Below are positions 27,333-58,746 of a stretch of DNA of 64,000 bases, one piece after another; position 1 is the stretch's first letter, and the number at the start of each line of letters is the position of its first letter. Position numbers and translations under genes: made by a program. Under the pieces are notes generated by a model, which saw only the letters and a program-made list of their open reading frames with translations, did not search any database and was not told the origin of the DNA. Source of the DNA: Chrysomallon squamiferum (taxonomy: Eukaryota; Animalia; Mollusca). Where the stretch lies: positions 36,580,001-36,644,000 of the forward strand of contig CM022671.1 in NCBI GenBank assembly GCA_012295275.1, written 5' to 3'.

Positions 27333-28671
27333 AGAGAGACACAGAAACAAACACACACTCACACACACATAGACACACACACATAGAGACACACACACAC
27401 AGAAACACACACACACAGAAACAAACACACACTCACACACACACACACACAGACACACACACACACACAGAAACAAACACACACTCACACATAGACACAC
27501 ACACATAGAGACACACACAGACATACACACAACACACACACAAACACATATACATGCACACAGACACATGAGTCAGAGTGATTCAGATGGAACAGCACAC
27601 ACACAGACACATAAACACATACACACACAGATACATAAACACACATAAAGACACACCCACCAACACGAAGACATTCATTTTTGACATTTCCAGTCTTCTG
27701 TTTTGCAGATTGTGTGTTGAAAAGATGGAAGAAGAGAAAGAACAGACTGAAGAATTAAAATCTATGATTGTTGAGGTAATTTTTAAATATCTTGAAAATA
27801 GCTGTTTGACAAGGCAAAGTTATAGGACTTACATCATTTCGATGTATTTTACTGTTTGCTGATGTCAAACAACACTTGCTGCTAACAAAAGGTATTGATT
27901 GATAAGATGTTGGTCATATATTACTATTACATATTGTTTAACTCCTTATAATCTAAAATTAAACAGATAATCTTACATTCAGTCGTTCTATTTGTCAAAT
28001 GTGTTCAAATGATTTCAGATTTTCAGACACTGGGATAGATGTGACCTTCCTGTGAGTGACCTTGAACTTCTGTTCACAGAGAATCTTCACCTTTTAGCTC
28101 TTCCCATTGGTCTTGTCATCTTCAGGTTGTTTATTTTATTTTATTTTATTTTATTTTATTTCATTTTATTTTTTTGGTTTAATGATTTTAGGTTTTTATT
28201 TTTTTTTATTTGTATATTTATTAATTTCTTTCTGTTCTTCTTTATTTATTTAGTATTTGTTTATTTATTTAGTTAGTTAGCTAGTAATTAAGTTAGTTGT
28301 TTTGCTGTCTTTCAGTGGGCTGAGAGTAAACAAAGCAGAGAGAAGTAAACAGCTGTATGTAGAACAGTTTTCAACTCAGTTCTGTCTGAGAGTTTTACAC
28401 TGTGTTCTCACCGGACACCCTGACTGGATGGACAGACAGTGGACGTGTGGACAGCAGTTGACGGAAGCGACTACAGTCGAGATTCAGACACAAGATAAAC
28501 TGACTGTGTATGACCAGGTGTGGAGAGATGTCGTGCAGAACTTGGAGAAAAATTACAAATCTCAGAGTCACATTTCTTTGACAAAACATGAGACTGGTCA
28601 CCTAGGCCAGCAGAATCTTACAGGTGTGTGTGTGTGTCGCTCTCTCTCCGCCCCCTCTCTCTCTCTCTCTC

Positions 28672-28734
<63 letters not shown>

Positions 28735-28745
28735 GTCTCTCTCTG

Positions 28746-28778
<33 letters not shown>

Positions 28779-29167
28779 AAGTATATATTTCATATATTCA
28801 TTTTATCTCTTTTACCTACTTGAAAATACAGAACATGTATGTGTTGTTGTTTTTATAAATATCAACGATAAGATTGCTTTAAATGTTTGATTTTGATGGT
28901 TTAAAATTTGGATGGGATGTTATATAGCTTATATTAAAATTATTTTCAGATAACTCAAGTGTTAAACCACTGACAGTACTGTTTACTTGTGGACATCACT
29001 TCACACAGGAGTCATTCACACGTGAAATTGTTGTCAGTTTGGAGGACAAACTTACAGACAAACTACCTTTCACTATGTCGTTACTCAAACAGTATTATAA
29101 CAGAGATGGGTTACTTCCCCTCGCCTGTCCTAAGTGTGTACTCAGTGCTTTGATTACGTTATCATGA
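11695..29167 (+). CDS. RCC1-repeat protein, ~1,509 aa, 32 exons; probably claret/GLO-4-like Rab GEF family
   Basis: Phase-consistent exons: 11695-11839, 12381-12550 (GC donor), 12888-12960, 13404-13471, 13769-13891, 14143-14287, 14578-14705, 16267-16437, 17698-17936, 18136-18313, 18767-18966, 19310-19406, 19674-19800, 20002-20206, 20468-20531, 21049-21195, 21396 (or 21354)-21481, 21887-22022, 22342-22496, 22925-23075, 23418-23552, 23733-23912, 24257-24364, 25570-25698, 25866-26033, 26394-26498, 26829-26936, 27183-27271, 27709-27775, 28019-28125, 28316-28623, 28950-29167 (TGA). RCC1 repeats include [79 protein letters not shown]-terminus has FTCGHHF...LACPKC. Gene structure is solid; orthology is inferred. 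Confidence 0.88.
14700..15150 (+). repeat. ~41-bp minisatellite starting at splice donor 14706
   Basis: Unit tacaggtaacatacagtaatgttgattgtatacacaggtatat, ~10 copies. Confidence 0.88.
15966..16308 (+). repeat. 70-bp tandem repeat of acceptor plus exon start, 5 copies
   Basis: atacaggt at 16051, 16121, 16191 and 16261, plus a degenerate copy near 15981. Confidence 0.92.
18305..18620 (+). repeat. 20-bp minisatellite starting at splice donor 18314
   Basis: Unit ctgtctaatatgtaacacac; the first copy spans the exon end. Confidence 0.88.
20175..20390 (+). repeat. 40-bp tandem repeat of exon end plus donor
   Basis: AG|GT at 20205, 20245, 20285 and 20325. Confidence 0.88.
21636..21925 (+). repeat. 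~60-bp tandem repeat of acceptor plus exon start
   Basis: Unit aggtgaaaacaaggtgtaaattaattatatatttatacagactaggacatggagaactgac. Confidence 0.88.
22493..22860 (+). repeat. Degenerate ~21-bp minisatellite starting at donor 22497
   Basis: Unit gtgagt/gtaagt-gttatttattatata. Confidence 0.75.
23060..23262 (+). repeat. 34-bp then ~18-bp tandem repeat starting at exon end / donor 23076
   Basis: ggcactcacagaacaggtacacactgtttacaca is duplicated, then caggtacacactgtttaca units follow. Confidence 0.85.
24457..25352. repeat. 15-bp minisatellite (atcatgtctcactgt), ~60 copies, intronic
   Basis: Directly visible; source of the SHCII / RHDTV spurious ORFs. Confidence 0.95.
27020..27190 (+). repeat. 40-bp tandem repeat ending at acceptor 27182
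   Basis: aggctct at 27061, 27101, 27141 and 27181. Confidence 0.85.
27295..27660. repeat. Degenerate (CA)n/(GA)n low-complexity tract
   Basis: Directly visible. Confidence 0.9.
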
Positions 29168-32979: not shown

Positions 32980-33288
32980 TTAATAATAATAAAAATCATC
33001 ATCGTCATCACTGCTTATCAAAATGCTAATGAAAATATTTGTGTATAACATACGTAAATAAAATGTTTGGTAATTAAGATATTTTTGTTGTTGGTAACTA
33101 AATCTTATTTAAATCCTTCCAGTTTATCATTGTGAGGGAATGTTAAAAAAGCGTTAGATATTAGTTAACATTTCTGAAATAATTTATATTCTAGATACAA
33201 GCAACTTTTTTCATTTTCATAGAACTACATTTGCTAGGTGCACTATGTGTGTCTGCATTTGTATATTTGCCAATACACGATATCTGTC

Positions 33289-33392
<104 letters not shown>

Positions 33393-33599
33393 AAAGAAGG
33401 TAGATAGGAAAACATTTCAGACAGATATGAATATACAAATTTCGACATTTGACATTGGACTATTCAGTATTAAAAATATGTGATAGTTCTTTATCTCCTT
33501 CAAGTGTTATCTCTAATGGATAATAAAAAAAAAATAGTTTTCTTGACACAGTTCCTTGAAACTAAAATGTAAATATTTCAGAAAGCGGGAATCTGTGAA

Positions 33600-36500
33600 T
33601 TACGACACTTTTCTCTGTTTAGCAGACTGCTCTTTGCTTGATAGTGTCTTGTCTAATCCTGGGGCTGGAATTGATTTGCCTGGCACCGTGGATCTCACTT
33701 TAGGTGGAATCTTCTTTGGCTGAGGGAACTTCTGATCCATTTGTTTCTTCAGCCTGTCTCGTTCTGCTTGCTGTTGTTTGTACAGAGACTGGGTCTTCTT
33801 GCTGGAGTGCGACGCCTGGGCTGAATGAGGGGGTGGAGGAGCATTGACGTTTGGTTTGATGTGTTTCGACGTCCTCATCAGCTTCTTCAGATAAGCCATC
33901 TTCTCTATCTGTGCCTGCGCTTTGCTCTTAGCTTTTTTCTTCATTTCTTCATCTACTTTTTCTTCTTTTTTAGGTTTCTTCTTCTTGTCTTCCGTGTCTT
34001 TGTAACCAAACAGTTTGGTGCTGATCAAGTCCATGAGGTCGATGGACTCCTCGTGAGGTTTCTGTTTGATTGGTTGTAAATATTTGTTTTTCCCCTGACC
34101 GGAGTCACTGCCTTTCTTACTCGACCACACAGTCTTGAGGGCATTTTTCACTATGCTGAAGATACTCGCTTCTTTCTTGCCTTTACGAACTTTCTTTTTG
34201 AGTTTAAGAAGTTTTTTCTTCCCAGTGCATTTCCCTTTCTCACACTGTTTTACCTGTAAGTCATCTGGAATACCGTCCCCATCATCATCGTCATCTAGAT
34301 AATCTGGGATGCCGTCATTGTCATCATCGTCATCCAGATAGTCTGGGATGCCGTCTCCGTCTGTGTCAACAAGTTTATCTGGGATACCATCACCATCAGC
34401 ATCTTCGTCTAAGTGATCTGGAATGCCGTCACCGTCAGAATCCTGTTCATGGTCTGGTATCCCATCTCCATTTTTATCTTCGTCCCTGTGATCAGGAATT
34501 CCATCGCCATCTTGATCAGGAAGCCTGTCGGGAATACCGTCACCATCAGCATCGTCGTCCAAATAGTCGGGAATACCATCGCCGTCGAAGTCTTCCTTGT
34601 CATCAGGTATGCCGTCGCCATCATCATCATTGTCCAAGTAGTCTGGTATTCCATCATTATCATCGTCATCGTCGAGATAATCTGGTATACCGTCACCGTC
34701 AGTGTCTTTCTCCATGAAGTCAGGAATACCGTTTCCATCTCGATCCGTGTCCAGGTGATCTGGAATTCCGTCATTATCGTCATCATTGTCTAGATAATCC
34801 GGAATCCCGTCACCATCAGTGTCACCTTCAAGGTCATCCGGTATGCCGTTACCATCGGCATCATCGTCTTCATCGTCTGGGATCCCATCATTATCGTCAT
34901 CATCATCTAGGTAGTCGGGTATTCCATCGCCATCGCTGTCTATCTGTTCTTCGTCAGGAATGCCATCCCCGTCATCATCATTGTCTAGGTAATCAGGAAT
35001 TCCATCATTATCATCGTCATCATCTAAATGGTCAGGTATTCCATCACCGTCTGTGTCTTTCCAGTCAATGCCGTCGGGAATGCCGTCTCCATCTATGTCG
35101 TCATCTTCAGTGTCTGGGATTCCATCGTTGTCGTCATCATCGTCAAGATAATCCGGAATGCCATCTCCGTCGGTGTCAATCTGCTGATAATCTGGTATTC
35201 CATCACCATTTGAATCATCATCCAGGAAGTCAGGGATGCCATCATTGTCATCATCATCATCCAAATAATCAGGAATTCCATCCCCGTCAGTATCAAGTTC
35301 CTCATCATCTGGGATACCATCTCCGTCATCATCATCATCCAAATAGTCCGGAATGCCATCATTATCATCGTCATCATCTAAGTAATCAGGAATGCCATCC
35401 CCATCGGTGTCTAATTCTAGATGATCAGGAATTCCGTTGCCGTTGTCATCATCATCTAAGTAATCAGGAATGCCGTCATTGTCGTCGTCATCATCGAGAT
35501 AATCTGGAATTCCATCACCGTCCGTGTCCACTTCTTTGTTATCAGGAATTCCATCACCATCATCGTCATCATCTTCACTGTCAGGGATACCATCATTGTC
35601 ATCATCATCATCCAAGTAGTCAGGAATTCCATCACCATCTGTGTCAACTTGCTGGTAATCTGGCACACCGTCACCGTCATCATCATCATCTAAGTAATCT
35701 GGAATTCCATCATTATCATCATCTTCGTCGAGATAGTCAGGAATACCATCTCCATCTGTATCCACTTTGAGATAGTCAGGTATACCGTCCCCATCTGCAT
35801 CTTCGTCCAAGTGATCAGGTATGCCATCGTTGTCATCGTCATCGTCTAAATAATCAGGAATTCCGTCTCCATCTGTATCTTTAGTCTTGTTTATTTTTTC
35901 TGATGTGCTGTCGTCTTCATCGCTGTCGTCATCAAGATAGTCTGGAATGCCGTCTCCGTCGCTGTCTTTCTCTTTCTCGTCGGGAATCCCATCGCCGTCA
36001 GCATCGTCATCAAGATAATCGGGAATTCCATCGCCATCCGTGTCTAGCATTTTATCAACGTTTGTGGTTTTGATTCCCCTCTTCATTTTAAAAACTTTGG
36101 CTTTCTTTTGTTGAGCATCTGGAATACCATCCCCATCATCATCATGATCAAGGTGATCAGGAATTCCATCTCCATCATCGTCATCATCTAAATTATCAGG
36201 AATTCCATCACCGTCTGTATCTATTTGCTGATAATCTGGAATTCCATCACCATCCGCATCTTCATCTAAATGGTCAGGTATTCCGTCATTATCATCATCA
36301 TCATCCAAATAATCAGGAATTCCATCCCCGTCGGTATCAATCTCTTTGAAATCAGGGATGCCATTGCCATCAGCATCTTCATCTAGGTAGTCAGGAATAC
36401 CGTCTCCATCTGAATCGATGTCCAAATAGTCGGGGATACCATCACCGTCAGAATCGAGCTCTAGAGAATCGGGAATGCCGTCACCGTCAGAATCTTTATC

Positions 36501-38453
36501 TGTTTCCTGATCGTCTGGTATTCCGTCACCATCATCGTCCTCATCCAGATAATCTGGAATACCATCGCCGTCTGTGTCTATTTGCTGACTGTCAGGAATG
36601 CCATCGCCATCATCGTCATCATCTAAGTAATCAGGAATACCATCTCCATCTGTATCTTTTGTTTTGTCAACAGGCATAGTTTTTGCTTTTCCCATCTTAC
36701 GAAACTTCGCACGTAACGTCAACATTTTTTCTACCTCATCCGGTATCCCATCGCCATCATCATCGTCGTCCAAATAATCAGGAATCCCATCTCCGTCTGA
36801 ATCAACCTGTTTATAGTCTGGTATTCCATCACCATCATCATCATCATCCAGATAATCTGGAATCCCATCCCCGTCTGTATCCTTCGTTTTATCAACTACT
36901 TCTTGCTTTGTTGTTGGAAGTTTTGGAGATTTAACAGATTGTTTTGGAAGAACTTTCTTTTTACCAATCGGCACAGCTTTTGTTTGTTTTGTCACCTTTG
37001 CTTTTTTAGTAGGCACCTTTGTAGCCTTTTCTAGATGATCAGGAATTCCATCACCATCATCATCATCATCATCCAGGTAATCAGGAATCCCATCCCCATC
37101 TGTATCAACTTGTTGATAATCAGGGATACCATCACCATCAGAATCTTTCTCTAAATGATCTGGTATTCCATCACCATCATCATCATCATCCAAGTAATCG
37201 GGAATCCCATCCCCGTCTGTATCAACTTGTTGATAATCTGGTATTCCATCACCATCATCGTCATCATCCAAGTAATCGGGAATCCCATCCCCGTCTGTAT
37301 CAACTTGTTGATAATCTGGTATTCCATCACCATCATCGTCATCATCCAAGTAATCAGGAATCCCATCCCCGTCTGTATCAACTTGTTGATAATCTGGAAT
37401 TCCATCACCATCCTTATCTTCGTCAAGATGATCAGGAATTCCATCATTATCATCATCATCATCTAAATAATCTGGTATACCATCACCATCTGAATCTATT
37501 TCCTGATAATCAGGGATACCATTACCATCTGAATCTTTCTCTAAATCATCTGGTATTCCATCGCCATCATCATCATCATCCAAGTAATCTGGAATCCCAT
37601 CCCCGTCTGTATCAACTTGTTGATAATCTGGAATTCCATCACCATCCTTATCATCATCAAGATGATCAGGAATTCCATCATTATCATCATCATCATCTAA
37701 ATAATCTGGTATACCATCACCATCTGAATCTATTTCCTGATAATCAGGGATACCATTACCATCCGAATCTTTCTCTAGATGATCAGGAATGCCATTGTTG
37801 TCATCATCGTCATCCAGATAATCAGGAATACCATCGCCATCAGAATCTTTTTCTTTGTCATCAGGAATTCCATCTCCATCACTGTCATCATCAAGATGGT
37901 CAGGAATTCCATCATTATCATCATCATCATCTAAATAATCAGGAATACCATCTCCGTCTGTATCTTTGGTTTTATCTATTGGTGGAGGCGAAACTTTCTG
38001 AACTTTGGGAACTTTGGGCACAGTTTTTGGAACAATTTTTGGTTTCACTTTTTGATCTTTTAATAGAACTTTCTGTTGAGTTTTGGGCTGAACCTTCTGT
38101 TGTGTTTTTAACTGAACTTTCTGTTGTGTTTTGGGCTGAATCTTCTGTTGAGTTTTGGGCTGAACTTGCTGTTGAGTTTTCGGCTGAACTTTCTGTTGTG
38201 TTTTGGGCTGAACCTTCTGTTGAGTTTTTGGTTGAACTTTCTGTTGAGTTTTGGGCTGAACTTTCTGTTGAGTCTTGGGCTGAACTTTCTGTTGAGTTTT
38301 GGGCTGAACTTTCTGTTGAGTTTTGGGCTGAACTTTCTGTTGAGTTTTGGGCTGAACTTTCTGTTGAACTATTTTGGGTTTGGGTCGGGTTTTCGGAGGT
38401 TGTGTGGCTTTCTCCATTGACATCAACTTTCTTCCACAAAATGTGCAGGTCTC
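33600..38453 (-). CDS. Giant coding exon (1,617 codons + stop): Asp-rich DxDxDGIPD (TSP type-3-like) Ca2+-binding repeat protein with Lys/Gln/Pro-rich N-terminus and basic C-terminus
   Basis: Uninterrupted 4.85-kb ORF with synonymous variation between repeats, a coding signature. Opens at polypyrimidine tract + TTCAAG|GAG (phase 0). First in-frame ATG is 38423. 13-aa period xxDxDxDGIPDxL. The 5' connection is unresolved (see findings). Confidence 0.9.
38075..38380 (-). repeat. Coding 24-bp minisatellite, (QQKVQPKT) x ~12
   Basis: Unit ttctgttgagttttgggctgaact repeated on the + strand, in frame with the giant ORF. Confidence 0.9.
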
Positions 38454-39872
38454 CTTGAACAAAGATAACAAATAAAATAATAAGAAGAACAAGGCGATAG
38501 AAACTAAGTAAGTACGTACGAATATAAATAAATAAATAAATAAATATCAAACCATACCAAAATGCATTACAAACCAATACGAATGTTTTTCTATAATTTA
38601 TTAACCACATCATGCATAAGAAAACAAAAAATAAAAATAAAAAATAAAAATACAAACATCTATCCTTGTATTAAATATGATGATTAAAATGTAATGCTTG
38701 CTTCCCATGTTGACATATAGAACTACACATCCTAGAAAAACCATTGTTTATTATTCATTTTATTTATTTATTTTTATTATATATATATTTTTTTTAAATG
38801 TAAGATAATGTCTATATGCATTAACATGTGCTTTGGATCTGTGTGCCTGCGTCTGAATGAATTGTGTGTATATGTATACATAGGCATGTCCATATGTATG
38901 ATTATATATATGTTTCTGAATCTATTCATATGACTGCATGTATGCTATTTTGTGTGACTGTCTTGTCAACTTCCAGTCTAACTATTTAAAAGCAACACAT
39001 TTATTCTATTAAAAATTATACTTACTGGTGATAAATCCGAATGCTGTTTTTACGTCTTTGCTTGCAATAAATAAATTAGTAAACTGAATAACATGCTGGA
39101 ATGGCACACTGTGAAAACAACCCGATTCACATTTGAAGTTACAGCTCTGCGTTGCACTATGAAGTTTTTATATTTTTTTGAATTTATCTTCACAAAAAAA
39201 ATTTAAGTGTGTTCATTATAACTATTGGAAACGACAGAAATAAGCAAATCTAAAAAAAATATCTATTTATTTACTTATTTTTACTATCTTACTTCATTAT
39301 TATTATTAGCCTTACTGGTTTGAAGATAGAACGAATATTCTGTGTAACAAGAAATGTGTAACTGTAAGAATATTTAATGGTAAGAGGGGATTCAGTGAAT
39401 GTTTTAGATGGAATGAACTTGTAATTCACTGAATATTAATTTTTAAAAGAACGAATACCTAACATGAATATTTAACAGAATGAATGTTTAACAACACTTC
39501 AGTGAGATATACTGTATAGTCCATGGATCAGAACAGAATTTGGTACCAGCCAGATGGACAAAGCTTATCAGTTGTTTTTATATTAATTCATGAAAACTTG
39601 GCCTATAGCCAGTGACTATTAGTTTTGTCATCACAATATATTAACATAACTTTTATTCCAATTTACTTTTAATATAATTTAAAAAATTAAAAAATATGTT
39701 TTTAATTTAATAATAATATATATATAAAATAATAATAGTTATTATTAGCCTTATTTACAGAATCTTGAAGAAGCAGTAATTTTAAATTTCTCTGTAAATT
39801 CAGACATTTCAAATATAAGTCAGTAACTTTCAAATCCAAAAACAGTGTTGCAGAAAATGCAACAAAAATTAA

Positions 39873-39948
<76 letters not shown>

Positions 39949-40573
39949 TATTACATGTATTTTTTTTTTACCCCGGATTTGATTACGTGTTGAAATTAAA
40001 TAAACTATTTTATTTCTTGTGACTTCATATATATGGTTTATGTAGCTTTCTTTGTTTCAGAAGCCACCACTTTGGTTTAGGAAAATAATTACAACCAGAG
40101 CCTCACTGGACTTTCTTTGTTTTACAAATTTTAACATTTATTAGTTGTATTGCACAATTGATTTTTCTTCAAAATAGATATCTCACAAAGAAAATAATCA
40201 AATGCTAGGTCTTCTACAGCTGTATATAAAATTCATTTGTGGATGTATCATGATTGATGTTAGATTTTGTTAGCATTTTCCATACAAAACATTTTGTTTA
40301 TCTGGAAATAACTGGTATTGAACCTGGAAACCCAGCATTTCCATTTATAATCATCTGCAGACATGACATATACTTTGCTAGTAACACACAAAAAATTGAC
40401 TTCGCACACCGATTTGGTAACTACTCAAAATATGAATGTGTGTTTAACTTTAACACAAGTGTCAACAAAGTTTAAGAGGAAAAGAAAATTAAGGATTGTT
40501 TTACTTAATTAGAAAGTCATACTACAGGGTGTCAGAGTGAAACAACAAAGCCTATACTATTATCTTCAAACAG

Positions 40574-40606
<33 letters not shown>

Positions 40607-41452
40607 CAGCAGTCACCATTTTCCACAATACTCATTACTTCAGTTGTGACATTTGCTCCTCTTAAATCTGTGATATCTATATAGTTGTACATATTTGAAG
40701 GACGAGCTTCTACCGACAGAATATTTTATTCATTGATTTGTAAATGGTATTATTTTTCTTTCTACTACAGACATTTTAATTATTCCTATAGAAAATATTT
40801 ACTTCTGCAGTTTTAAAGCCTACCTTGGCACTTTCTAACCATAAATAAACTGATCCTTCTATGTTATGTGAAGAACAAAACAAACAAAAAAGAAAAGTCA
40901 AGCAAGCAAAATTGGCAAAAACATATTTTGAAACAAAACATTAAAATAACTTCAAAAACAACAAACCATGCATATTAACACATACAAATAATTTATTCCA
41001 TCTTGAACTGTACAAGTTTTTCATACAAACAAAATTTGTGATGTTAGTTCTTGATTGCTCATTCACAACAAAATACGACATTACACAACATCTTACATTC
41101 TCCATTTTTCCAATGAACAAGGCAACAATAAAAGATAATTAGGTTCATGTGCTCAGATTCTGTTAACTGTAATTCTTTTTACCCATTTTTCAAACAATTT
41201 AATAATAATAATAATACTAATAATAAAACTAATAATAATAATAATAAAACTCAAAATTTAAAACTTTAATAGCATAGTTACTTTTTGTAAGAAATATGTA
41301 AGTATATTTTAGGGAAATAATTTTCAAGAGAAGTTTTGAGTAGACTGCTCAGTTAACATGACAAATGACAAAATTAACATGTATCTATGAAGATGAAAAC
41401 TTCTAGAAATGATTTGCTGTAGTTTTGATGATGATATTTCTATTTTTCACTG

Positions 41453-44400
41453 TTAGAGTTCATCTTTTGTTTTATCTTCACTCTGTAGACAAAAGAAAAA
41501 AAAGAAGAAAAGTAACTATTAGAAATTGTCTCGGATTTTAGCTGTTTGTTCCCTGTTACCCTCATTGCTGGCCTTTGTTGTTTTTTTGTTTGTTAAATGT
41601 TCATTTTGTACTGAGTTAGTGCTAATCAAAACTATGCAAATCCTCATGCTCAAAAACAAAGGATGCAAATTGCACAAACAATTTGTTTTTAAAACAGGAG
41701 AGAAAAAGAAATAATCATAAAATGTATAAGAACAAAATGGATGCAGATATTAAAATTGTTTCAAATAAGAACGGATGAAATGGTTTCTCATCCGTCCGTC
41801 ACACACGGCACAGCAATAAGCTGTAATCGGGAAAACAGCACAGCAACTGGATTAGTTATACATGTCATGCAACAGGTTAGACATTTATTCACTTGTTCTT
41901 ACTGGGTGCTTTTCTTTTAATAATTGATCATTTGATACGGTTTCTTTTAATATTTGATTGTTTGAATACTGTAAACAAATGCTAAATAGAAGAAAGTTCC
42001 TTTTAAAACATAAATGTTCTGCAAGTAATTATTTTCCTATCAAACTTAACCAAGATAATAAAGATGTACTGTTGTATTTAGAAACAAATTAACTTACTTT
42101 CTCTGCTTCTTCTGCAGGTTTTTCTTCCTCTTTTATTGTTTCTTTTTCTTTTTCTTCACTCTCTTCAGCAACAACCTCTTCTTCCTCCCCTTCTGCTTTC
42201 TCCCCCTCCTCTTCTTCCTCTGGCTCATCTTCAATCTGTTAGCAGATTTTAGTATTAAACACCTTTTTACTTGCATGTTTATTACACTATTCTTTTCTTT
42301 GTAATATACATCATCTATAAATCAGGTAGAACACAGATTGAAAAATTTGATAGGATAGTTGTAATATTTCTTTCAGTCTTTATTTTATCACATAATATAT
42401 GTACAAAATATACTTGACCAAAAAGTTGAAACTAACACTAACCTTGGCATCCAGTGGTACGTCCATACTAAGTCGCAGCATTCTCTCTATCCTATCAGCA
42501 AACCCTGCTGAGTCTGGAACCAGGTACCCTGACCTCATCGTAGCAGTTTCAAACATGATGATTGCCAAGTCTTTAGCAGTTTGATCTTCTTTGTTTGCCT
42601 GAAAGTAATGATGAGTGTAAACCTATAAATACATACAAACGTCACAATCATACACACACAGACACACACACCGTCAACAAATGCCTTGCTGTTTTTACAT
42701 TATTAAAACAAAACTTAATTTGTAAAGATCTCTGTATTGTTAATGCCTGGCTATTTAACAGATCTACACAATTACCTCTACTTTCTGTTTAAGTTCTTTC
42801 ATCAGAGGGTGTCGTGGGTTGATTTCCAATGTCTTCTTTTGTGATGAATAAAATCTGAAAGAAAAAAGTTAATTTTACAATTAACATTTTATACATAGAA
42901 ACAGCTACATTTTACTGTTATTTTTTTTATTGTATGTAAAAATTACATACATGTTCTGTGTCCATATCTATGGCCACAATTATTGTGTTTTCACCCTAAC
43001 ATGCATCTTAAAACTGCATTAATAACTACTAAGTTACTCACTCCTGATTAGGGTCTTTGGATTTAGCATAAGCTTGTGCTCTCATTAATCTCTCCATATT
43101 TCCTGACCAGCCATACTGACTGGCAACCAAGGCACATGGTGAAGTTGTCAAACGTTCGGACACAGTCGCTTTTTCAATCTGGAAATTTCATATAATATTC
43201 ACTTTTAACTTGATATATCATTTGACAAAAATAAATCCAAAAAGGTACTAAGAAAGAAGATAAATGCTTTAATGAAACTTTTTAAAATCTGGTGTTTTCA
43301 CTCATATTATCAAGGTTTAAAATTAAACAAAAATGAGAGTGGTTATCAAATTCCCATTATTACATCTTAGGCTTCATAAGCAAGAAACATTATGCTAGAT
43401 TTTGAAATTTTCTCACCTTGTCTTTCAAAGCGTCCTCCTTCAACCACTTCAGTAGAGGTTCGTACTCCTTTTCTAGAGCTTCCTTCCTCTCCTTGGCTTT
43501 TTCTGAATCGTCAAGTTTCAACCCATCTTTAGCTACATTTTGGAATTTTTTACCATCAAACTCAGGCAATGACTGCATGCAGTATTCATCAACTGGGTCA
43601 ACCAAATAAAGCACTTCATAACCTTTCTTTAGAAGACGCTCAACAAATGGAGATTTTGATACCTGAACACAAAATATACTTATATAAAATGTACTGTAAC
43701 TGATATAATGAATATTTAACATGCAGAATGTTGAAATATAAACAACACATTTAAAAAATAAGATACAGTAAAATATTTTTTACATAAATGATTTCATAAA
43801 TTCAGTTTTATTTTTTTTCATTTTGTCTTGGCAATTTCTAATAACATTATCACAAGAGAAAATTAGGTACTATATTTTTAAGAATACCAAAAATTATTAG
43901 TATGAACAAACAAGTGAAACTTTGACATCAAGAAAAATGAAATCAATTTATCTAGAATTATTTTGTTTCAGTTACCTGCTCTTTATGCAAGTAATGAACT
44001 AGTTGGCAAATTAAATTGTAAGTAATTATTTTAACAGATGTTTATAAATGTTTAAAAAAGCATGCCTCATTTTTGGTGGTTCCAGCTATGAAGTAAATAG
44101 CATCCTGTTTTTCCTTCATCCTCTCAACATAGTCAGCCAGACTGGTCATCTCGGTGTCAGAGTTAGAAGAGTAAAATCGGAGAAGTTTTGCCAGTCGAGT
44201 TCTGTTAGACGGGTCTTCAATGACTCCCAGTTTGATACTGGAAAACATTTTTAATGTGATACATAACATTTTGTCTGATTACTGTACAAGTAATAACATA
44301 TGCTGAATTAATCAAGAACTGAAATTCAAAAAATATTTGGAATTAATACTTATCTGTTCCTGCAGATGCATTGTTTATAATATATTACTTGATATAGACT

Positions 44401-47400
44401 TATTAAATTAAGAAAATGATTATCTAATTTTCTTCAGTAATGTTTCATGGTAATCCTGTCAGTTTTATACCAGAGAGAAAAACACAAATATTCAGTCATT
44501 ACCTTGTGCTGTATTCCTTCCAGAAGTGTTCATAATCATCTTTGCTTATCTTCTTAATCATGTCAAGAGTTTTTCTAACAAGTTTTTTCTTTATCACTTT
44601 TAACAGTTTGTGTTGCTGTAGGGTTTCTCGTGACACGTTCAGTGGCAAGTCATCAGAATCAACCTGAACACAAAACATGAATAAAATCTTTAACTTCCAT
44701 CTAGTATTTTATTTTATGTTTTTCTATTTTCTGTGGAATAACCCCCACCAAACAAATTACATACAATACTTTTGAACACTTACTCTGAATTGAAAATGTG
44801 CTGTGTAACTTGGTTTTAGTACACTTTTCCTGTTATATAGTTACAGGAAAATGAATACAAAAAATTAAAATGTAAACATGTAGGAGATATCAAAATTAAC
44901 ATCATAAATGGTATGTAAAGGAAGCTTTGTTTCAATTAATGAACATGCAGGATTAAATTAAATATTGATTACAAATTAGCAACAGAGTGAGATTAAAACC
45001 TGATTTACTTACCACACCTCTGATAAAAGCCAGATATTTTGGCATCATATCTTCAAAGTCATCAGTGATAAACACTCTTCTGACATACATCTGAAAAAAA
45101 TATAAAACATTTTAAGAAGGTTTATGCCCAACACTGGAAAGCTATTTAAAATATATGCAAAGCCAATGCTTTTTGGGACAAAAAAAAAAAAATCTGATTT
45201 ATTGTAGGAATAAACATAAAAAAATATAATATTTTTAATAGCTGTGTAAAATTCAATTCTTATAAAATGAGGAAAAACAAACCTTTATACTGCTAATTTT
45301 CTTTCCATAGTTATGGAAGAGGTCACTGGGAGAGTTCTTTGGCACGTAGAGGATAGATTTGAACGTGACCTCACCTTCGGCAGTGAAGTGAATCTTTGTC
45401 ATTGGATCTTCAGATTCCTTGCTGATAGACTTATAGAATTCATTGTACTCACTTTCTTCAATGTCTGCAGGTCTGAAACAAAATAAGTTTATTTTATTTA
45501 CAAGATAACTCATGATGTAGAATATTACAACCGTTTTACAATGATCAGTGAAGAGGTGAACTCACTTGCGAGTCCAAATTGGCTTCACGCTGTTCATCAG
45601 TTCCCAGTCCCAGACTGTCTTTGACACCTTCTTTGTCTTTGGTTTATCTTCCTCCTTCTCTTCTTCCACCTTTCCATCATCTTCCTCTTCTTCTTTGTCT
45701 TCTTTTTTCTTTTCTTCCTCTTCAATAGGTTCCTCAACCTCTTCTGTCTGTTACAAAATATTTATTAAAGGTTTATAATATTTTCTTTTTAGCAAGAATT
45801 GAAGAACATTTTCAAATAATTGTTACAGTAAAGAATGAATGAATATTTAACGACATCAGTACAATTCTAAGTTCACAATAAGAAAATAATGGAGTAAAAT
45901 AAATCAGTGTTAGAAACTGATTTATAATATTTTTACTCTATACAGTATAATAAATACGAGAAAAAAAAAATGTATCAAACATTTTAAAATTTATAATAGA
46001 AATTAAAGTATGGGAAATATCACAGTGTCTCAACTCCATCCTTTCTTGATTGTTTATAAGACTACCAATCACCTCAGTCTTACAATAAATAAAATTTGTA
46101 AAACAAATGCATGAAACTGATGTAAATCAGAATAAATAGAAGAATTATTTCCAAACAATGGAATTATAACAAAAGAGGTAAAGAATAAATGATAATTAAC
46201 CAGTGCTTTGTTATGAGAAGATAATAACAAATGTTAAGATGTGAAGGTTAAAAGAACAGCTGTACTCTGAGAGAGACATGGTGCCCTTTCAAGTGAGATA
46301 TCAGATAAAAAAAACAACCTCACACCTGCTCCAGCTTAATGTTTCATATCTAACATCACAAGCCCTCCTCTTTATCTCATGTTCATTCATTTGAAAGTTT
46401 TACTAGTAATTAAAATAATGTGGCAGGCGGTAATAACAGACAAAATTGATAAAATATTTTAATAAAAAACTTCATTATTAAAAAAAAAAGAAAAAAAAAA
46501 AGAAGGTTCCATTACAAATATACTTAACTCTTCCAATTTAGAATTAATGTCAGACTAATGCAAGGTGTAATTATAGCCAACTTTGAACCCAGACCTTCTT
46601 TGGTGTAAATTTTGATAAAAATAAGAAAAGAAATAAAATAATTAAAAAGAAATACCAAAAATAAAATAATATTTTAAAGTTAAAATATAGGTGTTATTTA
46701 AAATGATGAAGTGTTTTACTTTGCTAGTCCACAGGTAGATGTTGAAGTTGATGAACTGACTGTACTTCTTTATCAAGTCTTTTAAAGTGTTTTCCTCCAA
46801 AAAGTCATGTGCCTCTTCCTTCAGATGCAAACTGCAAAATAAATCAGTTAATGGATTCTTAATGACACAATCTTTGATGAACCAGACAAGCAAATGTTCT
46901 AATTATTAGGCTACACAATTTAAAAACACACTTATTAGAGTAACAGATACAAACATTAATAGTAAAAAAAGAAAGAAAAAAGAAGACAAACAGTCTTAAA
47001 CATTATACATACAGTACATTTTCCTAACACAGTTGTTAGGTTTCAATTATTAACAAATGTAACAATACTAACAAATCTGCTAATAAAATCAGGTGGTTCA
47101 AGATAAGTCAAAGTAATTTTAGACAACAAATAACTGTGTAGGATAAAGAACATGTAAATCCTATTTCAGTACAGTGTTAATAGAACTTAAGGCTAAAGCT
47201 AATTAAATTAAGGTAGGTGTTGTAATAACTTAATGTGACTGCTGTATATATAGGACTAATGAAATTCTTACCTGACAGTAGTTCCACGTCCAAGTGTATT
47301 TCCTCTTGGATCTTTCACAATGCTGAACTCATTGGCATCAGATTCCCAGATGTATTGGTCATCATCATTGTGCTTTGAGGTGACAATGACACGATCCGAA

Positions 47401-48256
47401 ACTAAAAAAAACCCAAAACCAAAACAATTGTAAGTCAAAGCAATCTATTTACAGACTGTAAATTAATTTGCTTGTTGTTTGCTGCAGTGACATTAATGTT
47501 TTTAAATTATTTTCTGGTGTATGTGTGCAATGGAATGCAGTGCTGTATGGACTCAAGTAGGCATGTGTCACTTTACAAGCAAAATTGCAGCCCATGGGCC
47601 ATACAAAGATTTCTACAGTAAAATCACGTTTTTATCTTCATAAAATAATTTTTTTTTTTAAATCGTTTCAATTATGTCATCTACTTTCTTTTAACTTCTG
47701 GCAAATCATGTGCAGCTTATTAACAATTGTAAACAGAAAGCTTTCTTTTAAACATTTTAACAGTTTTTGCTTTTAAAATGGCAAATGCTCCTTTTCCTGC
47801 TTCACTACTTCATTACTTTGTATTTATGAATGCTGTTAAATTTGCTAAAACATTTCTGTGGACATTGATATTATAGATTAAGCATAGTGTAGATGCAAAA
47901 AATATAAATTGATTGTAATACACTTTTTGTTTCTTAGTTCTGTTGGTGTGGCTCCTAAATATACTCAAATTTTCTTATGCGCCACTAGGTAAGACTTGAG
48001 TTTGACACCCCTGGACTAACGAATATGATCAAATTAAAAACGAATCTTACCCAGAAAAGATGAATAGAACCCAACACCAAATTGTCCAATAAAATCAGCT
48101 GCATCAGCCTGAGTCTCTTCAATTTTTTTCTGTAGAAATTCACTTGTTCCTGATTTGGCAATGGTGCCGAGATTTTTCATCAGATCATCTTTAGTCATGC
48201 CAATACCAGTATCGGTGATATGTAGGACATGATTTTCTTTGTCTGCCTGCAGTAGT

Positions 48257-48299
<43 letters not shown>

Positions 48300-51200
48300 A
48301 CCTTTAATATTCATAGACAACAAATGATTATCATGTGTTAATTACATTATTTTTTGTATTATGTAAAAGGGAAGAAATGTAGATAATTTTCATACACTGA
48401 GAAAAGATAGAACATAAAACCATGTGATTGCCATGTAAGAATGATCTTAAGCCATACCTATCACAATTTTTATACATGTAAAAATAATATCCATAAGTAA
48501 AAATAAAAACTACTTCTTTTTAACACTTGACAGTACGATAAATTAATCTGCTATGTAAAGTGTTTTAAACTTTCTGTTATAAATTATATATGAATAAGAT
48601 GCTTCAAAGTATCAATTTGTTATACGAGAAAATATAATTATATAGCCACTGCTAATAAATGAATAAAAAATTATAGTAAATGTAGACATTAAGGAATCAT
48701 TTTTACTGTAAGAGCAAAAATGACATAAGCAAACCATTTACATAACTTTACTGTCAAACCAAGTGTTCAAAAGAAAACAATTAGGAAACTGGATACTGTA
48801 CTTGTGCACACAAAATTAAATTATAGCATTTGTTAATATATAACTCTTTAGGGCTTTTGCATTTTATACTTTTGTTATATAATGGATTAAGTGACATTTG
48901 TTAACTGTTGAATATAAAGATTTTAAAATTATCTAAAATTAAACAGTAAAAATAAGAAACAAACTCAACACAACTCATCATCTTACAGGTAAACAGCAAT
49001 ACAAGTATGAATTGTTATATTTGTGTGACTGCTGATTGTTACTACTAAGCTCAATGTCTTACAGTGAATGTATATTTAAGGGCAACTCTTTTTTTCTGCA
49101 AATACATCTGCATGTTGTTGCATGTATCTGACAAGTCAAGTTAAAATACCGGGGTGAAGTGCTGTAGCTGGGAAACATTTTCTCCTTAGTCATAGAGAAG
49201 CAAGTTATTTCTGAGTGAATGCTGCTACTTGTGAAGACTGGGGAGATTTACAAAACAATGACGGTAGCTGCAAACAGTGAACTCACTTACAGAAATATCA
49301 CTGCTATAAACAGTAAACTAACTAACAATTAAGTTCTGACCTGATCTCTGTATGAAATGAAAGGGAAAAGCACGGTTATGTGAAACAATTTTTCTTTCTT
49401 TTACAAAACAAAGAAAAAAGTCTATTACATTGCTTGAATGCTTTCAGCATCTGTTACTGGTGTGACTAATACTGAAGAAGAAAAATTCAAGGCTGGAAAG
49501 AAAAGCTCTGTTCAGTCTTGTATAGCATTTCTACATGTAATACATCTCTAGACTGCTATGATCTTGTCAGATATTTAATGTACAGACTATCGTACCATTT
49601 CTACAGTACACATCTATTCCAAACATTGGCTTCAAATTATTTAACTGATTTTACAAATATTTTCTTTAAAAACTAAAAGAGTTAATACTTTGTACCATTT
49701 GCTGCTTAGTAAACAAGTTTTATTATTTAACACTTTCCTAGATTCTGATAAAAAAATAGACTTTTTAAATTATTATTTATTAAACAATTTCTACTATGCT
49801 ATTATTCTTTTAAATTCATAATTATATTCTTACTTATAATTACATTTGAATGAAATACATAAGGGACTTAATTTTAAATATGAATAAAGTGCTTCAATAT
49901 TTGTCAAATTGTTTTTTCTAATCTTTCATCTCATTTAAGTTGTAAAAAGGTTAAACATATATAGTGATAATTAAAACAAATTAGTTTTAGACATTTCTAG
50001 TCCTAAAACAAAAATATATAAATCTCTCCCATTTATTGGGGTTTTTTTTTATTCTGTTCTGACAAAAATATACATTTAAAACTGATTACACTTATTATAT
50101 ACATTATTTTTATAGCCTTAAGCAAATTTATGTAAGAAATGTATGATGAAGTTTTTTTTAACTGAGGAAAATACAGCTTGATGAAGTTTTTTATAATTCA
50201 GATTATAGAATTATTATGATGATCGAATGGACTTCTATCACTAATCAAAGAAACTTTGTGAATTTGTTTATTTCTGTTTCAAACCTTACAGTCATCCTGA
50301 CCCACATTGCTAATTATATTCTCCAAGCCTTTCTTGTGTTATGAATTCCATGATATATGTTTGTTTAGAAATAAATCAAGAAATAAACTGGAATGTCCCA
50401 GGATGGTGCTGGGCTAATAAAGACATCAGACAGGTGCTACTAACAACATTATTTATGTTTGTTGATCCAGTAGACCTGTGTACGTAGCTGTAATTGTAGT
50501 TGTTATTAATAGACTACATATCCACAAGCACCATGCAGATACTTATTTTTTACCACATGAGGTCTTTAACTGCTTATCACAAAGTAACTAAGTGTCTTGC
50601 CACAGTGGTGTATTTTAACATGTTCTGGCAGACACACATTTTAAGAAAAAATCTGGGTTTTGGCCAAAGATGAAGAAAACCATATTGATAGGGTAGCTGG
50701 AGCCATGCAGTAAACAATAAGTTAGAAGTGATAACAGAAACAAACAGTTGGTAATAAGGTTATTTCTATAACCATGCACACTATTCTAAAACAGGATGTT
50801 AAGAAGATCAGAGGAAAAATTTTAATTTTTATAAATTTCTTGTTACAAACACATTTCTTATTGATCACTGAAATATTGCCATGTTTCCTATTTTAATCCA
50901 TATATAGCTAGAAACTTGTTTTGAATCAATATATATGTATCAAGATATGCTTATTTTTTAACAAGTATTACAAAACAGCATTCGCCTGGTAATAAAAGTA
51001 TATTATAAAATAAACATTTATATAACAAATAAAATCAGATGAACATCCTGATGACAAAAATGAACTTGGTCAACATCCAGATTTTATTTTTATATTTAAT
51101 TATTCTCTAGTAATTTTATGGTATATCAACATATTTATAAAACACAGAAAATATGAATATTCCAGATGTAGAACTTAACTGCTTATTTAGTTACTGATTA

Positions 51201-54200
51201 AGAAGACTGCCCCCCCCATCCTGCTCCCATAAACACAAGCTGTTTTCCTCAAAGATCCACAAATAAATGTTTAATAATGTGTTCCTGTACCATAATGCAA
51301 TCTTATTTACACAATGAATAAACAGGTAAATCTACAATAAACAAAATAACCGCAGCAAAACTTTGTGGAAAAGAAACAATTTGTAATACTTCATGAAAAA
51401 ACATTTTAATTTTTTTGAAAATGTTAGAAATTAAAGAATACTGGTTTTTGTCAAACAATCTACTTATGTCAGTATCTATCAACAATGTGAAAATGTCTTG
51501 AAAAGAATTTTGATTGTGTTTATAAAAACAACAGAAAAGCTTAGGATCTAATGTTAACAATTTCAACAGATACAAAACCAGTGAAGCAAGATATATGGTA
51601 AATTATTACCTAACAACTGGCTGTTATGAAAAGCCATCAGTAATGAAAACATTTGTGGCGTATGTTATGGCTAGATACTTATACATTAGGTAAATTGAAT
51701 AAAATATATATTTCATATAAATAACTGATTAAATGCAGAAGTTATGTCTTCCTTAGCTCAGAGAATAAATCTGTTAGATATTAAAAGTATTTAAAATATA
51801 TTGCTAATTATCATATTTAATTCTTTCCTTTTTTTTTCTTTTTGGAGACATTGGTTAACAGAAATACATCAGTTCAGATGAGTACATGTTTAAAATAAAA
51901 CTGAAATATGTGTATAAACAAAATAAATTACACTATTGTGACAGGTACCATTCTCTGAACCAGAGTTGTGACATCTCAAATTGAATTTCCTTTTTTTTTT
52001 CTTTTTTTTTTTTAATAATGCTTAATGTGTACAGTTCTGGCAATATATACTGTCAGATGTAGAACAGAAATAAAGCCAGCAGGACTCACACTGGTACTCA
52101 GAATGTGTTATCGGCAACATGCCTTCTTCTCAGTGAAATGTGCATCCAATAATATTTACAGGAAAGTCAGTTTTAGAGAGGAAACAAGCTGTGTTGTTTG
52201 TGAGGTTGGAGATGAAACATACTGATGCTGTGATATGGAAACACAAAGTGGATGTCTGCAGAACATGTGTGAAACAATATCACAGCTACTGTTCATTCAG
52301 AACATAAACTAGTGAAACATTTCTAGTGTACAAGATATTACTAATTAAAATTGTAACAGTTTCCTTACTGTTTATGACAGAATAAAAATAACCAACATTC
52401 AAATGTTATGAAATTACTTTGTCCTATACAACAGAACTGTGACCATTATCAACACTGTAACATGATATAAACAAAGTGAAAGTATGAACAGGTATCACAT
52501 CACACTAATATAATATATTACTTGACAATATTTCACAGTGGATAGCAGCTGTGTAATGAAGTGAAAACATTGACTTACCTTTATCTTGATACTCATCTCT
52601 GTAATGCTTCCCATTGCATCTTTGTCAGTGAGAGAAAGAAAACGAATCTTGTCTAAAGCATCAGAGGCATTTGATATCAGTTCTCTTAAGAAAATCTGAA
52701 AATAAAACCGGTTTTCATTAATCATCTAGTACCAGTAATTATTTCAGTGAACCTAATTAAATGCAGGGTGTATATTTATGTTTCTTACAAGTTTTATGCA
52801 AATGACTACACATATTAAATTAATAATCTTAAAGATGTATCAAGTGTAGATGGGTCAATTTCACTTTTGAGGGAAGTAATTTACTAGCAAAAATACCTTC
52901 TGATTAAAAGATGAGATTTGGAAACATTTTACATAGATCTTAGCAGCAAGCCTCTGCTATTAACAAATCACTTTTCTCACTGAGAAGTGTCACAAATGTA
53001 AAACATACCTCTTTATTTTTATACAGAGAGTTGATAATAAGTTTCATCATGCGATCCACTTCAGCTTGGAATGCAAATTTTTCCGATTTTTCCCTGAGTT
53101 CCTTCATTTGAGCAACGTTCAATCCATCTAACTTTATTGCTTCTTCCTCTCTGAAAAACAGATTAAAAATATAATAATTAAATGAATTTTATGAAATATG
53201 TAACATTAATTACAAGTTGGAAAATCATTTCAAATTGCTCACATTAAACACTATACTGTTGTATTTGCATACAATGGCATTCATAAATCATTAAAAACAC
53301 ACAGGATTCAAACTTTGGGATTTTCTGTATTTTCATAATAGTATTTATTTTTAGTTACTTGTCAATAATTTCTTTATATATATTTACAATTATTATAAGC
53401 AAAAAGGTTACATGTTTAAAAATTTGTGTAAGGAAAATGTCAAGATACATAATTTCTGATAAATTCTGATAATTTAATGGGGGTTTTTTGTTGTTTTTTT
53501 TAAATTAATATTATTATTCATTTATTAAATCATTTTCCCAGATAAGCATGATCCAAAATGATAACCATTAAGGGAGGGATGTTTTTTTGTTTGGAGGGAT
53601 GTTTTTTTTGTTTTGAGGGAGGTTTTTTTGTTGTTTTTTTTAAAAAGTATTTATTAGTTTTTTGTGTTTTTTTTGTATTTTATCCCCATCAGTTTTAATC
53701 TAATTTAAGCATCTATCAATGAAGAACAGTTTATTCAGTAATGCAAGTCTTTTATTATAAATACTGAAATATCACTGATTATTTATCAAAAGCAATGAAA
53801 AACAATTTCCTTGATCTGGTGAAACTTAGAATAATGACAGAAATGATGTAAACTGACATTTATTTTATCATTCACAGATTTCTAAATATGTAACCTTTTT
53901 TGCATATAATAATAAGAATGAATGAATGAATGAATGAATAAAAAAAAAAAAATTGAAAAATAGATAGACGAAACACAAAATATATCAGAAATGATATATC
54001 TTGAGATTTTCATTACACAGATTTTTAAACACGTAACCTTTTTTGCATATAATAAAAATAATAAAGAAATAAAGAAAAAAGAAAACACACTGAGTAACAA
54101 AATATGTCAGAAATGATGTAATTTGAGATTTTATTACACAGATTTTTAAAAAGGTAATCTTTTTTGCATATAATAAAAATAAATAAATTACAAAATAACA

Positions 54201-57200: not shown

Positions 57201-58538
57201 AAATAAATAATTTTGAAAATACCTCATAATTCTAAACTTATTTTGACAGGTCTGTTATTATTTATAATAGTCTTATAATAAATAATACTGAATATCAGCC
57301 CCTTCACAAATGCAATCGTGAAATAACTAAAAAATTAACTGTTGAGTCAAACATGAGTATTGTATTATTTGTAACAATATTAATAATTTTTTATTGTTAT
57401 ATATATTTTTTTTTTTTTTTAGAAAGGCTAAATATTACTGAGGTGTTTTTTTCTTTAAAAGATGTTGGTTCATAAAACAGAGAATTATATCAGATAACAG
57501 ACCATTTGTATTACAACTTCACATAATTATAATACACAAACCCTGAATACTACTACTAGTCCTACATTGACAAATAAGTAAAGAAATTATATTTTTGCAT
57601 AACTGACATATTTAACTTAGAAATGTTTCTCAAATTTGAAAATCATATATCCTTAATACAAATGATTGCATTTGACTGATAATTTTGAACAGAAAGCTTA
57701 AATTAATGTTAACAAATTGCTTTTGAAGTGATATGCTAATTACTTAATGTGTAATAATTATTGTAAATATAAAACAGATGTATTAAAGTGAAAACAGCCA
57801 TAAAACCCATTAAAAATGTTTGTGAAAATAAGTCATAATTGAATATTTATGAAATAAATATATTAATGTTTCATAATGAATACTAAATATTAAATGTTTT
57901 ACAAACAAGTTAAACATTGCATTCATGTAAATATTAAAAATTAACAAGTAATTTGAAAATACATATGCTGTACTCATAATGATCAACTTTTAATTATTTA
58001 TTATTATTATTGGTTTTTTTTAAATTAATTTAGATACACTTATTTTATATAAGTAATAAAATAAATAAATAAAAATAAAATTAATTTAACAAAACATTTT
58101 TTTTTTTCTTTTTTATGGCTATTCTTCATTATTTTTAATATAATATTAATAACAATTTTTAGTGCAGGCCCAGTACATGTCGGATACGATATCGAAAAGA
58201 ACGACAATATCACTAGTTCAAAAAACAAATAAATAGTAAAATACATGCTAATATTATTCTATATCAGTTTAACTAACTGACTGGTAATAAATCTGATCAT
58301 CAAAATAAATATTTCTTATATCATAGGACACACTGACACGGACAGTTACACTGGCTGTGCAAAAACATTTTACACGTGCTATAGCCTATAGATAATATAA
58401 TGTATTATACCATATACGAAGTTAGACGTCAAACGAAGGAAGGGGTAACAATAATTGTAAACAATTTTAAAAGTACTTTAGAAACTTACCGGATAAGAAA
58501 AGTAAACCTAAGATTCCTAATACGAGTAAATATTTCAT
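41453..58538 (-). CDS. HSP90B1: Endoplasmin / GRP94 (ER Hsp90), ~808 aa, 18 exons
   Basis: Exons: 58538-58490 (signal peptide [16 protein letters not shown]), 56642-56531, 53150-53009, 52695-52579, 48246-48051, 47401-47272, 46831-46720, 45747-45566, 45472-45283, 45090-45013, 44663-44503, 44237-44066 (GC donor), 43662-43417, 43178-43042, 42854-42776, 42598-42443, 42235-42098, 41482-41453 (SEDKTKDEL*). Hallmarks: [82 protein letters not shown]-terminal KDEL. Confidence 0.97.
47558..48013. mobile_element. Possible decayed non-autonomous hAT-like element (MITE) in an HSP90B1 intron
   Basis: Right end gagtttgacacccctg (reverse complement CAGGGGTGTCAAAC, a hAT/Charlie-type terminus). Degenerate left end taggcatgtgtca. 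Flanks gactcaag / gactaacg resemble a decayed 8-bp target-site duplication. Confidence 0.3.
53890..54200. repeat. ~125-140-bp tandem duplication, about 2.5 copies, intronic
   Basis: gtaacctttttt gcatataata...tcagaaatgat...ttgagatttt.attacacagatttttaaa recurs. Confidence 0.75.
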
Positions 58539-58655: not shown

Positions 58656-58746
58656 CCAATCACCAGTCCCCACATTCCTTCATTTTAACCAATGAAAGCC
58701 ACCCAAGTCGATGAACCCAAGTCTCTACTTGGCCTTATTCGATTGG
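58656..58746. promoter_or_regulatory. Three ER-stress-response-element (ERSE)-like motifs in the HSP90B1 promoter
   Basis: CCAAT-N9-CCACA (58656-58674, +), CCAAT-N9-CCAAG (58689-58707, +), CCAAT-N9-CCAAG (58728-58746, -). Consensus is CCAAT-N9-CCACG; all three keep the exact 9-nt spacer. Confidence 0.75.

Follow-up and report, generated by a model that had tools for sequence, protein, structure and literature searches.

GRP94, the endoplasmic reticulum (ER) chaperone encoded by HSP90B1, is treated as a single-form protein retained by its KDEL signal, and by what path it arrives at the cell surface or leaves the cell is a standing question. The subject of this analysis is a 64,000-nucleotide stretch of the genome of the mollusc Chrysomallon squamiferum (assembly GCA_012295275.1, contig CM022671.1, positions 36,580,001 to 36,644,000; hereafter the window, within which all coordinates are counted). 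There, the HSP90B1 gene is followed on the same strand by a giant open frame rich in aspartate and built largely of repeats that resemble the calcium-binding type 3 repeats of thrombospondins (TSP3). Does this frame belong to the GRP94 gene, and what would the gene then make? The order of the exons, a long frame that is open and in phase, its repeats, a motif at the join and the recurrence of this layout in gene models of Lymnaea and 16 fluke species make the giant frame very probably an alternative last exon of HSP90B1. That splicing onto this exon and a subsequent proteolytic cut together form a route of export is, in our view, a reasonably probable extension.

The giant frame runs on the minus strand from 38453 to 33600 (4,854 nt, 1,617 amino acids) and starts 3,000 nt past the HSP90B1 stop. 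The sequence directly before it is ...TCTTTGTTCAAG, and its acceptor (38454 to 38473, minus strand) consists of AAG preceded by a T-rich tract. Read from stop to stop, the frame is already open 31 codons upstream of this acceptor, from 38546, and those codons contain no ATG. On the side of the chaperone, exon 17 of HSP90B1 (42098 to 42235, minus strand) encodes the acidic linker and ends in phase 0 before GTAAGT, a donor that would be common to both predicted isoforms. Exon 18 (41453 to 41482, minus strand) has 30 nt, carries KDEL and is the last exon of the canonical isoform. Exons 1 to 17 joined to the giant exon leave an open product of 2,415 amino acids. A preliminary description of this locus had reported the 4.85-kb in-phase frame behind a polypyrimidine tract and AG 3.0 kb past the stop, the phase 0 end of exon 17, the isolation of KDEL in a 30-nt exon and a fused product of about 2,415 residues, and the exon map bears out each of these.

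The giant exon is segregated by charge. Its first 11 residues (38421 to 38453) hold a CxxC (residues 3-6) and RKLM (residues 8-11), a predicted site-1 protease site, and are followed by a basic Lys/Gln/Pro-rich spacer of 152 amino acids (37965 to 38420; 26% Lys+Arg, 2% Asp+Glu) that contains 12.6 copies of a 24-nt unit reading QQKVQPKT. Next come 87 TSP3-like DxDGDGIPD repeats (34262 to 37964), mostly of 13-residue period and with 42% Asp+Glu, interrupted by three Lys-rich inserts after 37064, 36764 and 36143; a basic C-terminal region of 219 amino acids with 27% Lys+Arg and the stop close the exon (33600 to 34261). Of the spacings between the 87 G[IV]PD units, 75 out of 86 are exactly 13 residues, and the exon as a whole contains 490 Asp. 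Against the Pfam family TSP_3 (PF02412) it scores 101 bits (E 2.7e-29; cut-off 25), and it matches the TSP3 regions of COMP and of thrombospondins 1 and 2 with E values of 3.6e-9 to 1.7e-5. By this likeness the loops likely bind Ca2+; the earlier count of such loops was roughly 85. Membership in the thrombospondin/COMP family was rejected, as TSP_3 is the sole Pfam match and there are four Cys in 1,617 residues. A sequence scan of the exon found no signal peptide and no KDEL-like end, a membrane anchor was rejected on a top 19-residue hydropathy of 0.22, and furin processing was rejected on the absence of R-x-[RK]-R from the tail. The 24-nt tandem repeat also reads Ser/Thr-rich QNSTESSA in another frame (37972 to 38670, minus strand, 232 open codons), probably a by-product of the repeat.

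The sharpest test of the alternative-exon reading is provided by a partial gene model of the pond snail Lymnaea stagnalis (CAL1526239.1, P0273), in which GRP94 is followed by ESCAFCNRKLMS and by 18 DxDxDG motifs. The junction motif directly follows the acidic linker in this model, and its 12 residues are identical at nine positions to the first 12 residues of the giant exon. In an ungapped comparison of ESCAFCNRKLMS with each of the 61,570 12-mers that are free of stops in the six frames of the window, the best match (score 53) fell at exactly 38453 and the next best reached 25. The codon so picked out is the first after the acceptor that had been chosen earlier without knowledge of Lymnaea. 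The spacer of Lymnaea is short and not basic.

The same order of parts is found in flatworms. Among 120 of 2,630 matches listed from a homologue search with exon residues 1330-1617 (889-2,830 amino acids only), seven carry an HSP90 domain and all seven are trematode endoplasmins. Searches for over-long GRP94 proteins (best 120 of 127 matches, a second search with 98 matches, and cluster look-ups) yielded at least 38 GRP94 proteins with five or more DxDxDG motifs, one from Lymnaea stagnalis and 37 from 16 trematode species (eight Schistosoma, four Paragonimus, and Trichobilharzia, Calicophoron, Opisthorchis and Clonorchis). In S. mansoni, the short forms of 796 amino acids (AAF66929.1, plus one Logan protein present on 49 contigs) and the long forms of 2,126 and 1,743 amino acids are identical over residues 1-785, after which the short form adds 11 residues ending in KDEL or KNEL; the counterpart in the window gene adds nine. 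Such pairs of a short KDEL form and a long form from the same gene were found in schistosomes only, as gene models. For S. japonicum, entry SJCHGC05256 is identical to the final 260 residues of the long isoform; the SJCHGC series derives from cDNA, so that the tail would be transcribed in that species. The preliminary description had allowed that the repeat gene might prove unlinked to HSP90B1 in relatives; in the gene models of Lymnaea and 16 trematode species the two are fused.

The window exon and the flukes share GRP94, CxxC, R[RK]L[LM], a Lys-rich spacer (96-128 amino acids between motif and first repeat in flukes) and repeats, in that layout, and the tails of snail and fluke are likely homologous. 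This homology rests on the whole layout because the fluke motif alone matches the window weakly. A second fluke motif, G-x-R[RK]L[LM]AV, ranks 6-134 of 55,177 at 38453 and so was not counted as independent support. We further note that several fluke tails contain additional RKL[AS] motifs, and that Schistosoma rodhaini has, besides a representative (P0030), 13 alternative long endoplasmin models of 1,691-2,617 amino acids in two clusters (P0121-P0141), a hint of heavy alternative splicing in the tail.

The residues at the join suggest what may happen to the product. Of the 38 long forms, 37 carry R[RK]L[LM] past the chaperone domain, most flukes in two copies, and CxxCxRx[LF] is present in 36 of the 38 vs one of 180 other HSP90-family proteins, a truncated Heterobilharzia model. 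The giant exon has no R[RK]L[LM] other than this RKLM; flukes have RRLL. In 5,000 shuffles of the tail, R[RK]L[LM] occurred anywhere in 0.48% and within the first 20 residues in none, and the motif is absent from 113 non-HSP90 repeat proteins (219,106 amino acids). A review (PMC8310232) gives the site-1 protease consensus as R-X-aliphatic-Z, with RRLL optimal and RKLM a tested or reported site, and has the cut take place between the ER and the cis/medial Golgi. The site in the giant exon fits this consensus, is conserved and is predicted to lie on the lumenal side.

A rival explanation that accepts the same splice evidence leaves the product whole: a 270-kDa GRP94 with a Ca2+ sponge would stay in the ER or sarcoplasmic reticulum of specialised cells, for instance those of muscle, held by a heterodimer with KDEL-bearing GRP94 or by the CxxC thiols, in the manner of calsequestrin or junctate. 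GRP94 dimerises through its C-terminal domain, the conservation of CxxC described above would suit such thiols, and the C-terminus of several schistosome models with a tail reads EE[IT]HDH, which is faintly HDEL-like. Retention of this kind leaves the exact site-1-protease-type motif at the join, mostly doubled in flukes, unexplained; RRLL substrates can be cleaved even in the ER (PMC8310232), and the window tail ends without a retention-like sequence. We consider an uncut isoform unlikely.

Under a second alternative, the giant exon belongs to another gene, which lies downstream and has a promoter and a small first exon of its own, so that the fusions in databases would reflect read-through or annotation of a conserved gene pair. 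Several AATAAA signals lie past the KDEL exon, including those at 40997 and 40730, and GRP94 fusions with unrelated neighbours recur in annotations. The preliminary description had found no ATG and signal-peptide exon in 38454-41452. In this it was partly right: two weak candidates of ATG with a hydrophobic stretch exist (38744-38658 and 38659-38606), and their donors (scores 3.3 and 3.5) fall below 16 of the 17 true HSP90B1 donors. Further, the models of 17 species show the same fusion with the KDEL exon skipped, the animal matches among the 120 of 2,630 listed are, apart from a single membrane protein of a mosquito, the seven GRP94 fusions of trematodes, and a protease site within the first 11 residues fits a large N-terminal partner and hardly a signal peptide. 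No stand-alone snail or fluke protein with this tail occurs among those same 120 matches of 889-2,830 amino acids. Taken together, we regard a separate gene as improbable.

RNA gives this alternative one further point. Contigs from RNA libraries (four runs of one study) were mapped to 33000-39640, a region that does not hold the HSP90B1 donor side, and those listed (44 loose ends and 93 pieces lie beyond the list) cover the giant exon partly and at low depth, with 11 to 23 of 30 bins showing any depth. Because they cover parts of the exon, it is likely transcribed. The joints listed either connect repeats with each other or rest on matches of 20-22 nt, whereas loose ends fall in repeats or in AT-rich matches. 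Such patchy cover without a junction is no evidence that the junction is absent. The claim of an alternative last exon finds agreement in homologous gene models and has no contig for the junction of 42098 to 38453. From these models, the phase and the open frame, we predict that this splice likely takes place in the window animal. The phase match by itself says little because 10 of 15 listed HSP90B1 introns are in phase 0, in keeping with the earlier caveat that it arises by chance in a third or more of cases.

It is very improbable that the exon is reached in a different way (via micro-exons, or with exon 16 as the donor) or represents rare, non-functional read-through: an open, AG/GT-flanked phase 0 24-mer (39316 to 39339, minus strand; below the score cut and unsupported), a higher-scoring open 69-mer (39361-39293) and the extra residues that separate the acidic linker from CxxC in flukes would allow it, but the Lymnaea motif adjoins the linker directly, and an open frame of 1,617 codons and a motif kept across phyla speak against noise. 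Other micro-exon candidates, near 39790 and 39040, fell below the score cut and were dropped.

Several observations weigh against the reading of the giant frame as an alternative last exon. Its acceptor is middling, scoring 5.5 on a matrix built from HSP90B1's own sites, on which the 17 true acceptors range from -3.6 to 14.0, and ranking seventh among 155 AGs in 41452-38301. Among the RNA contigs listed, no joint or loose end falls at 38453, where cover is near zero, and one run also covers the intron at 38803-39178; therefore DNA or pre-mRNA may contribute to the cover. All long forms are gene models. Among the matches listed, one mollusc alone, Lymnaea, has a long form, and that model is partial; the GRP94 models of Nucella and of rotifers have no tail. 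The fluke motif CPTCRRLL shares CxxCxRxL with the giant exon and matches it less well, ranking 5-199 of the 61,570 12-mers and never at the top, CxxCxRxL occurs three times in the six frames of the window, and DxDGDGIPD-type repeats are also common in bacteria. Finally, unrelated fusions recur: 21 of the 98 over-long matches are fish models of GRP94 with PKA-RII, and a hemichordate Glandiceps model (P0270) runs through KKDEL into an EGF-repeat protein ending in HKEL.

We note some features of these other fusions. The 21 fish 'endoplasmin' models have about 1,200 amino acids, join GRP94 to PKA regulatory subunit II, lack KDEL in the two inspected, and may represent a recurring annotation fusion or a conserved read-through. 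In Glandiceps, the partner looks CRELD-like, and the model is probably a merger of two adjacent ER genes. In basidiomycetes, dozens of HSP90-family models with a length of about 1,500 amino acids, from many genera (most rows of P0183-P0258), show one and the same fusion, to PF01846 and PF00397 (the FF and WW domains). The unrelated partners of GRP94 are whole known proteins, unlike the tail described here. A Topomyia mosquito membrane protein (P0103) with PF12832 (MFS-like) contains a long insert of DxDGDGIPD repeats, which suggests more than one recruitment of this repeat within the animals.

Wider searches brought little more. With exon 16 as query against 50% representatives, the best 150 of 279 matches are mostly single-exon genomic fragments, and no tail was seen at the C-terminal ends listed. 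A scan of metagenome contigs with a degenerate junction motif returned 18 loci, none with a tblastn match to GRP94 or to the repeats, and these are chance matches. In the ESM Atlas, the Lymnaea junction had no usable match, and the start of the giant exon retrieved only TSP3 clusters at 0.75-0.76, a lead only.

If the giant frame is an alternative last exon, the following mechanism can be proposed. The splice from exon 17 to 38453 would skip the 30-nt KDEL exon, and the precursor predicted from it, of 2,415 amino acids and 269 kDa, would enter the ER by the GRP94 signal peptide. Site-1 protease would then cut after RKLM in the ER or cis/medial Golgi, releasing a KDEL-less GRP94 of about 91 kDa that ends in CxxC-GRKLM (assuming a 21-residue signal) and an acidic tail of about 176 kDa with an isoelectric point near 4, whose TSP3-like loops would bind Ca2+. 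Both pieces would be exported because neither has a retention signal or a membrane anchor. Made under the ER-stress promoter of GRP94, the tail would most likely store Ca2+ in bulk or form a matrix, either within a secretory compartment or extracellularly. Of the secreted chaperone-Ca2+ sponge envisaged in the preliminary description, the KDEL-less alternative exon is retained in this mechanism; the single 270-kDa chain probably is not, given the site-1 protease motif. With a motif of this type 8-11 residues into the exon, a western blot for a band above 250 kDa could be falsely negative. The GRP94 half would migrate very close to normal GRP94, a possible reason for the isoform having been overlooked, and exported GRP94 of normal size would be indistinguishable from the ER form by standard westerns.

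The remainder of the gene is that of an ordinary GRP94. HSP90B1 comprises 18 coding exons on the minus strand from 58538 to 41453 (2,427 nt, 808 amino acids) and is complete; its HSP90 domains, signal peptide and C-terminal KDEL and its grouping with animal GRP94 identify it. It shares 74% identity with Lymnaea GRP94 over 765 aligned positions, and its nearest rows in the tree are Lymnaea (78% identity over 699 tree columns) and Nucella, the pairing with Nucella being valued at 93/90 and not starred; by this placement the animal is probably a gastropod. The coding part of exon 1 (58490 to 58538) holds the ATG and most of the signal peptide, exon 2 lies at 56531 to 56642, and exons 3-16 (42443 to 53150) encode the ATPase, middle and C-terminal domains, all on the minus strand. 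The intron with its donor at 44066 is a GC-AG intron starting GCATGC. An ER stress response element (ERSE) had been ascribed to the promoter, and an ERSE-type CCAAT-N9-CCACA is indeed present at 58656 to 58674 (minus strand, in reverse orientation), with further ERSE-like or unfolded protein response element-like sites at 58746, 58707, 58864 and 59339. A plus-strand gene converges on the giant exon, with exons at 22905-23075 and 28281-28823 that contain one RCC1 repeat (Pfam E 1.9e-16) and a coding-like stretch without a family match above cut-off.

The components named here are of known kinds, namely an alternative last exon, TSP3-like repeats and a site-1 protease site, and we have not found their combination on GRP94, in a snail and flukes, described. 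As the preliminary description had supposed, a literature search, which left most subscription journals and supplements outside its range, found no description of a long GRP94 isoform, and the database entries of long endoplasmins leave the tail uncommented. A survey of S. mansoni heat shock proteins lists the gene as 'endoplasmin precursor-like', and the accessible part of that article yielded no mention of a tail (PMC9559072). Endoplasmin is reported in S. japonicum eggshell samples (PMC1435792), which a KDEL-less form could explain. If the mechanism is true, a conserved splice-and-cut route would explain GRP94 export in snails and flukes, bulk Ca2+ handling would be tied to an ER-stress promoter, and an overlooked protein family would be defined that already stands uncommented in the genomes of 16 parasitic flukes. 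More tentatively, ever since snails and flatworms shared an ancestor, the GRP94 gene could also have supplied the precursor of a giant secreted protein that binds Ca2+ and serves as an acidic store or mineral matrix, with splicing removing KDEL and site-1 protease splitting the product; the CxxC beside the site may even make the cut redox-controlled. Extracellular gp96 would then have a genetically encoded source, also where fluke and host meet.

Comparison with known systems places these features in context. The window gene resembles canonical KDEL GRP94 in its 18 exons, signal peptide, ER-stress promoter elements and 808 residues to KDEL; its predicted second isoform differs in losing KDEL and gaining 1,617 amino acids. 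The long trematode 'endoplasmin' models (XP_018651354.1, TNN18814.1 and KAG5444747.1) and Lymnaea CAL1526239.1 share the order GRP94, CxxC, R[RK]L[LM], DxDGDGIPD, and the complete ones lack KDEL, as does the predicted window isoform; in the trematodes two motifs flank an acidic spacer and alternative models are numerous, whereas in the window one exon holds the whole tail with a single motif. The tail is like the type 3 repeats of thrombospondins and COMP in its DxDxDG-type loops at 13-residue spacing and its TSP_3 score above cut-off; it differs in its 87 simple, cysteine-free units and in lacking EGF repeats and a C-terminal lectin-like domain, and in unit sequence it is closer to bacterial TSP3-like arrays.

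In gene architecture, a parallel is ASPH, which gives junctate, junctin and aspolin by alternative 3' exons. Both would be cases of one ER gene yielding an enzyme and acidic Ca2+-binding products by alternative last exons; the ASPH products are membrane-anchored and without the catalytic domain, whereas the predicted isoform would retain the chaperone entire, apparently to be cleaved from the tail. Substrates of site-1 protease (SKI-1/MBTPS1) show the same RKLM or RRLL, in a position predicted to be lumenal (PMC8310232); the present one differs as a soluble chaperone precursor for which cleavage is predicted. The silaffin and silacidin precursors of diatoms are likewise repetitive and charge-segregated, with acidic peptides released at RXL motifs (PMC4557024). 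Their sequence is unrelated, their mineral is silica and not calcium, and RXL follows each repeat, whereas a single site follows a folded chaperone here; the resemblance would thus be one of working alike and not of kinship.

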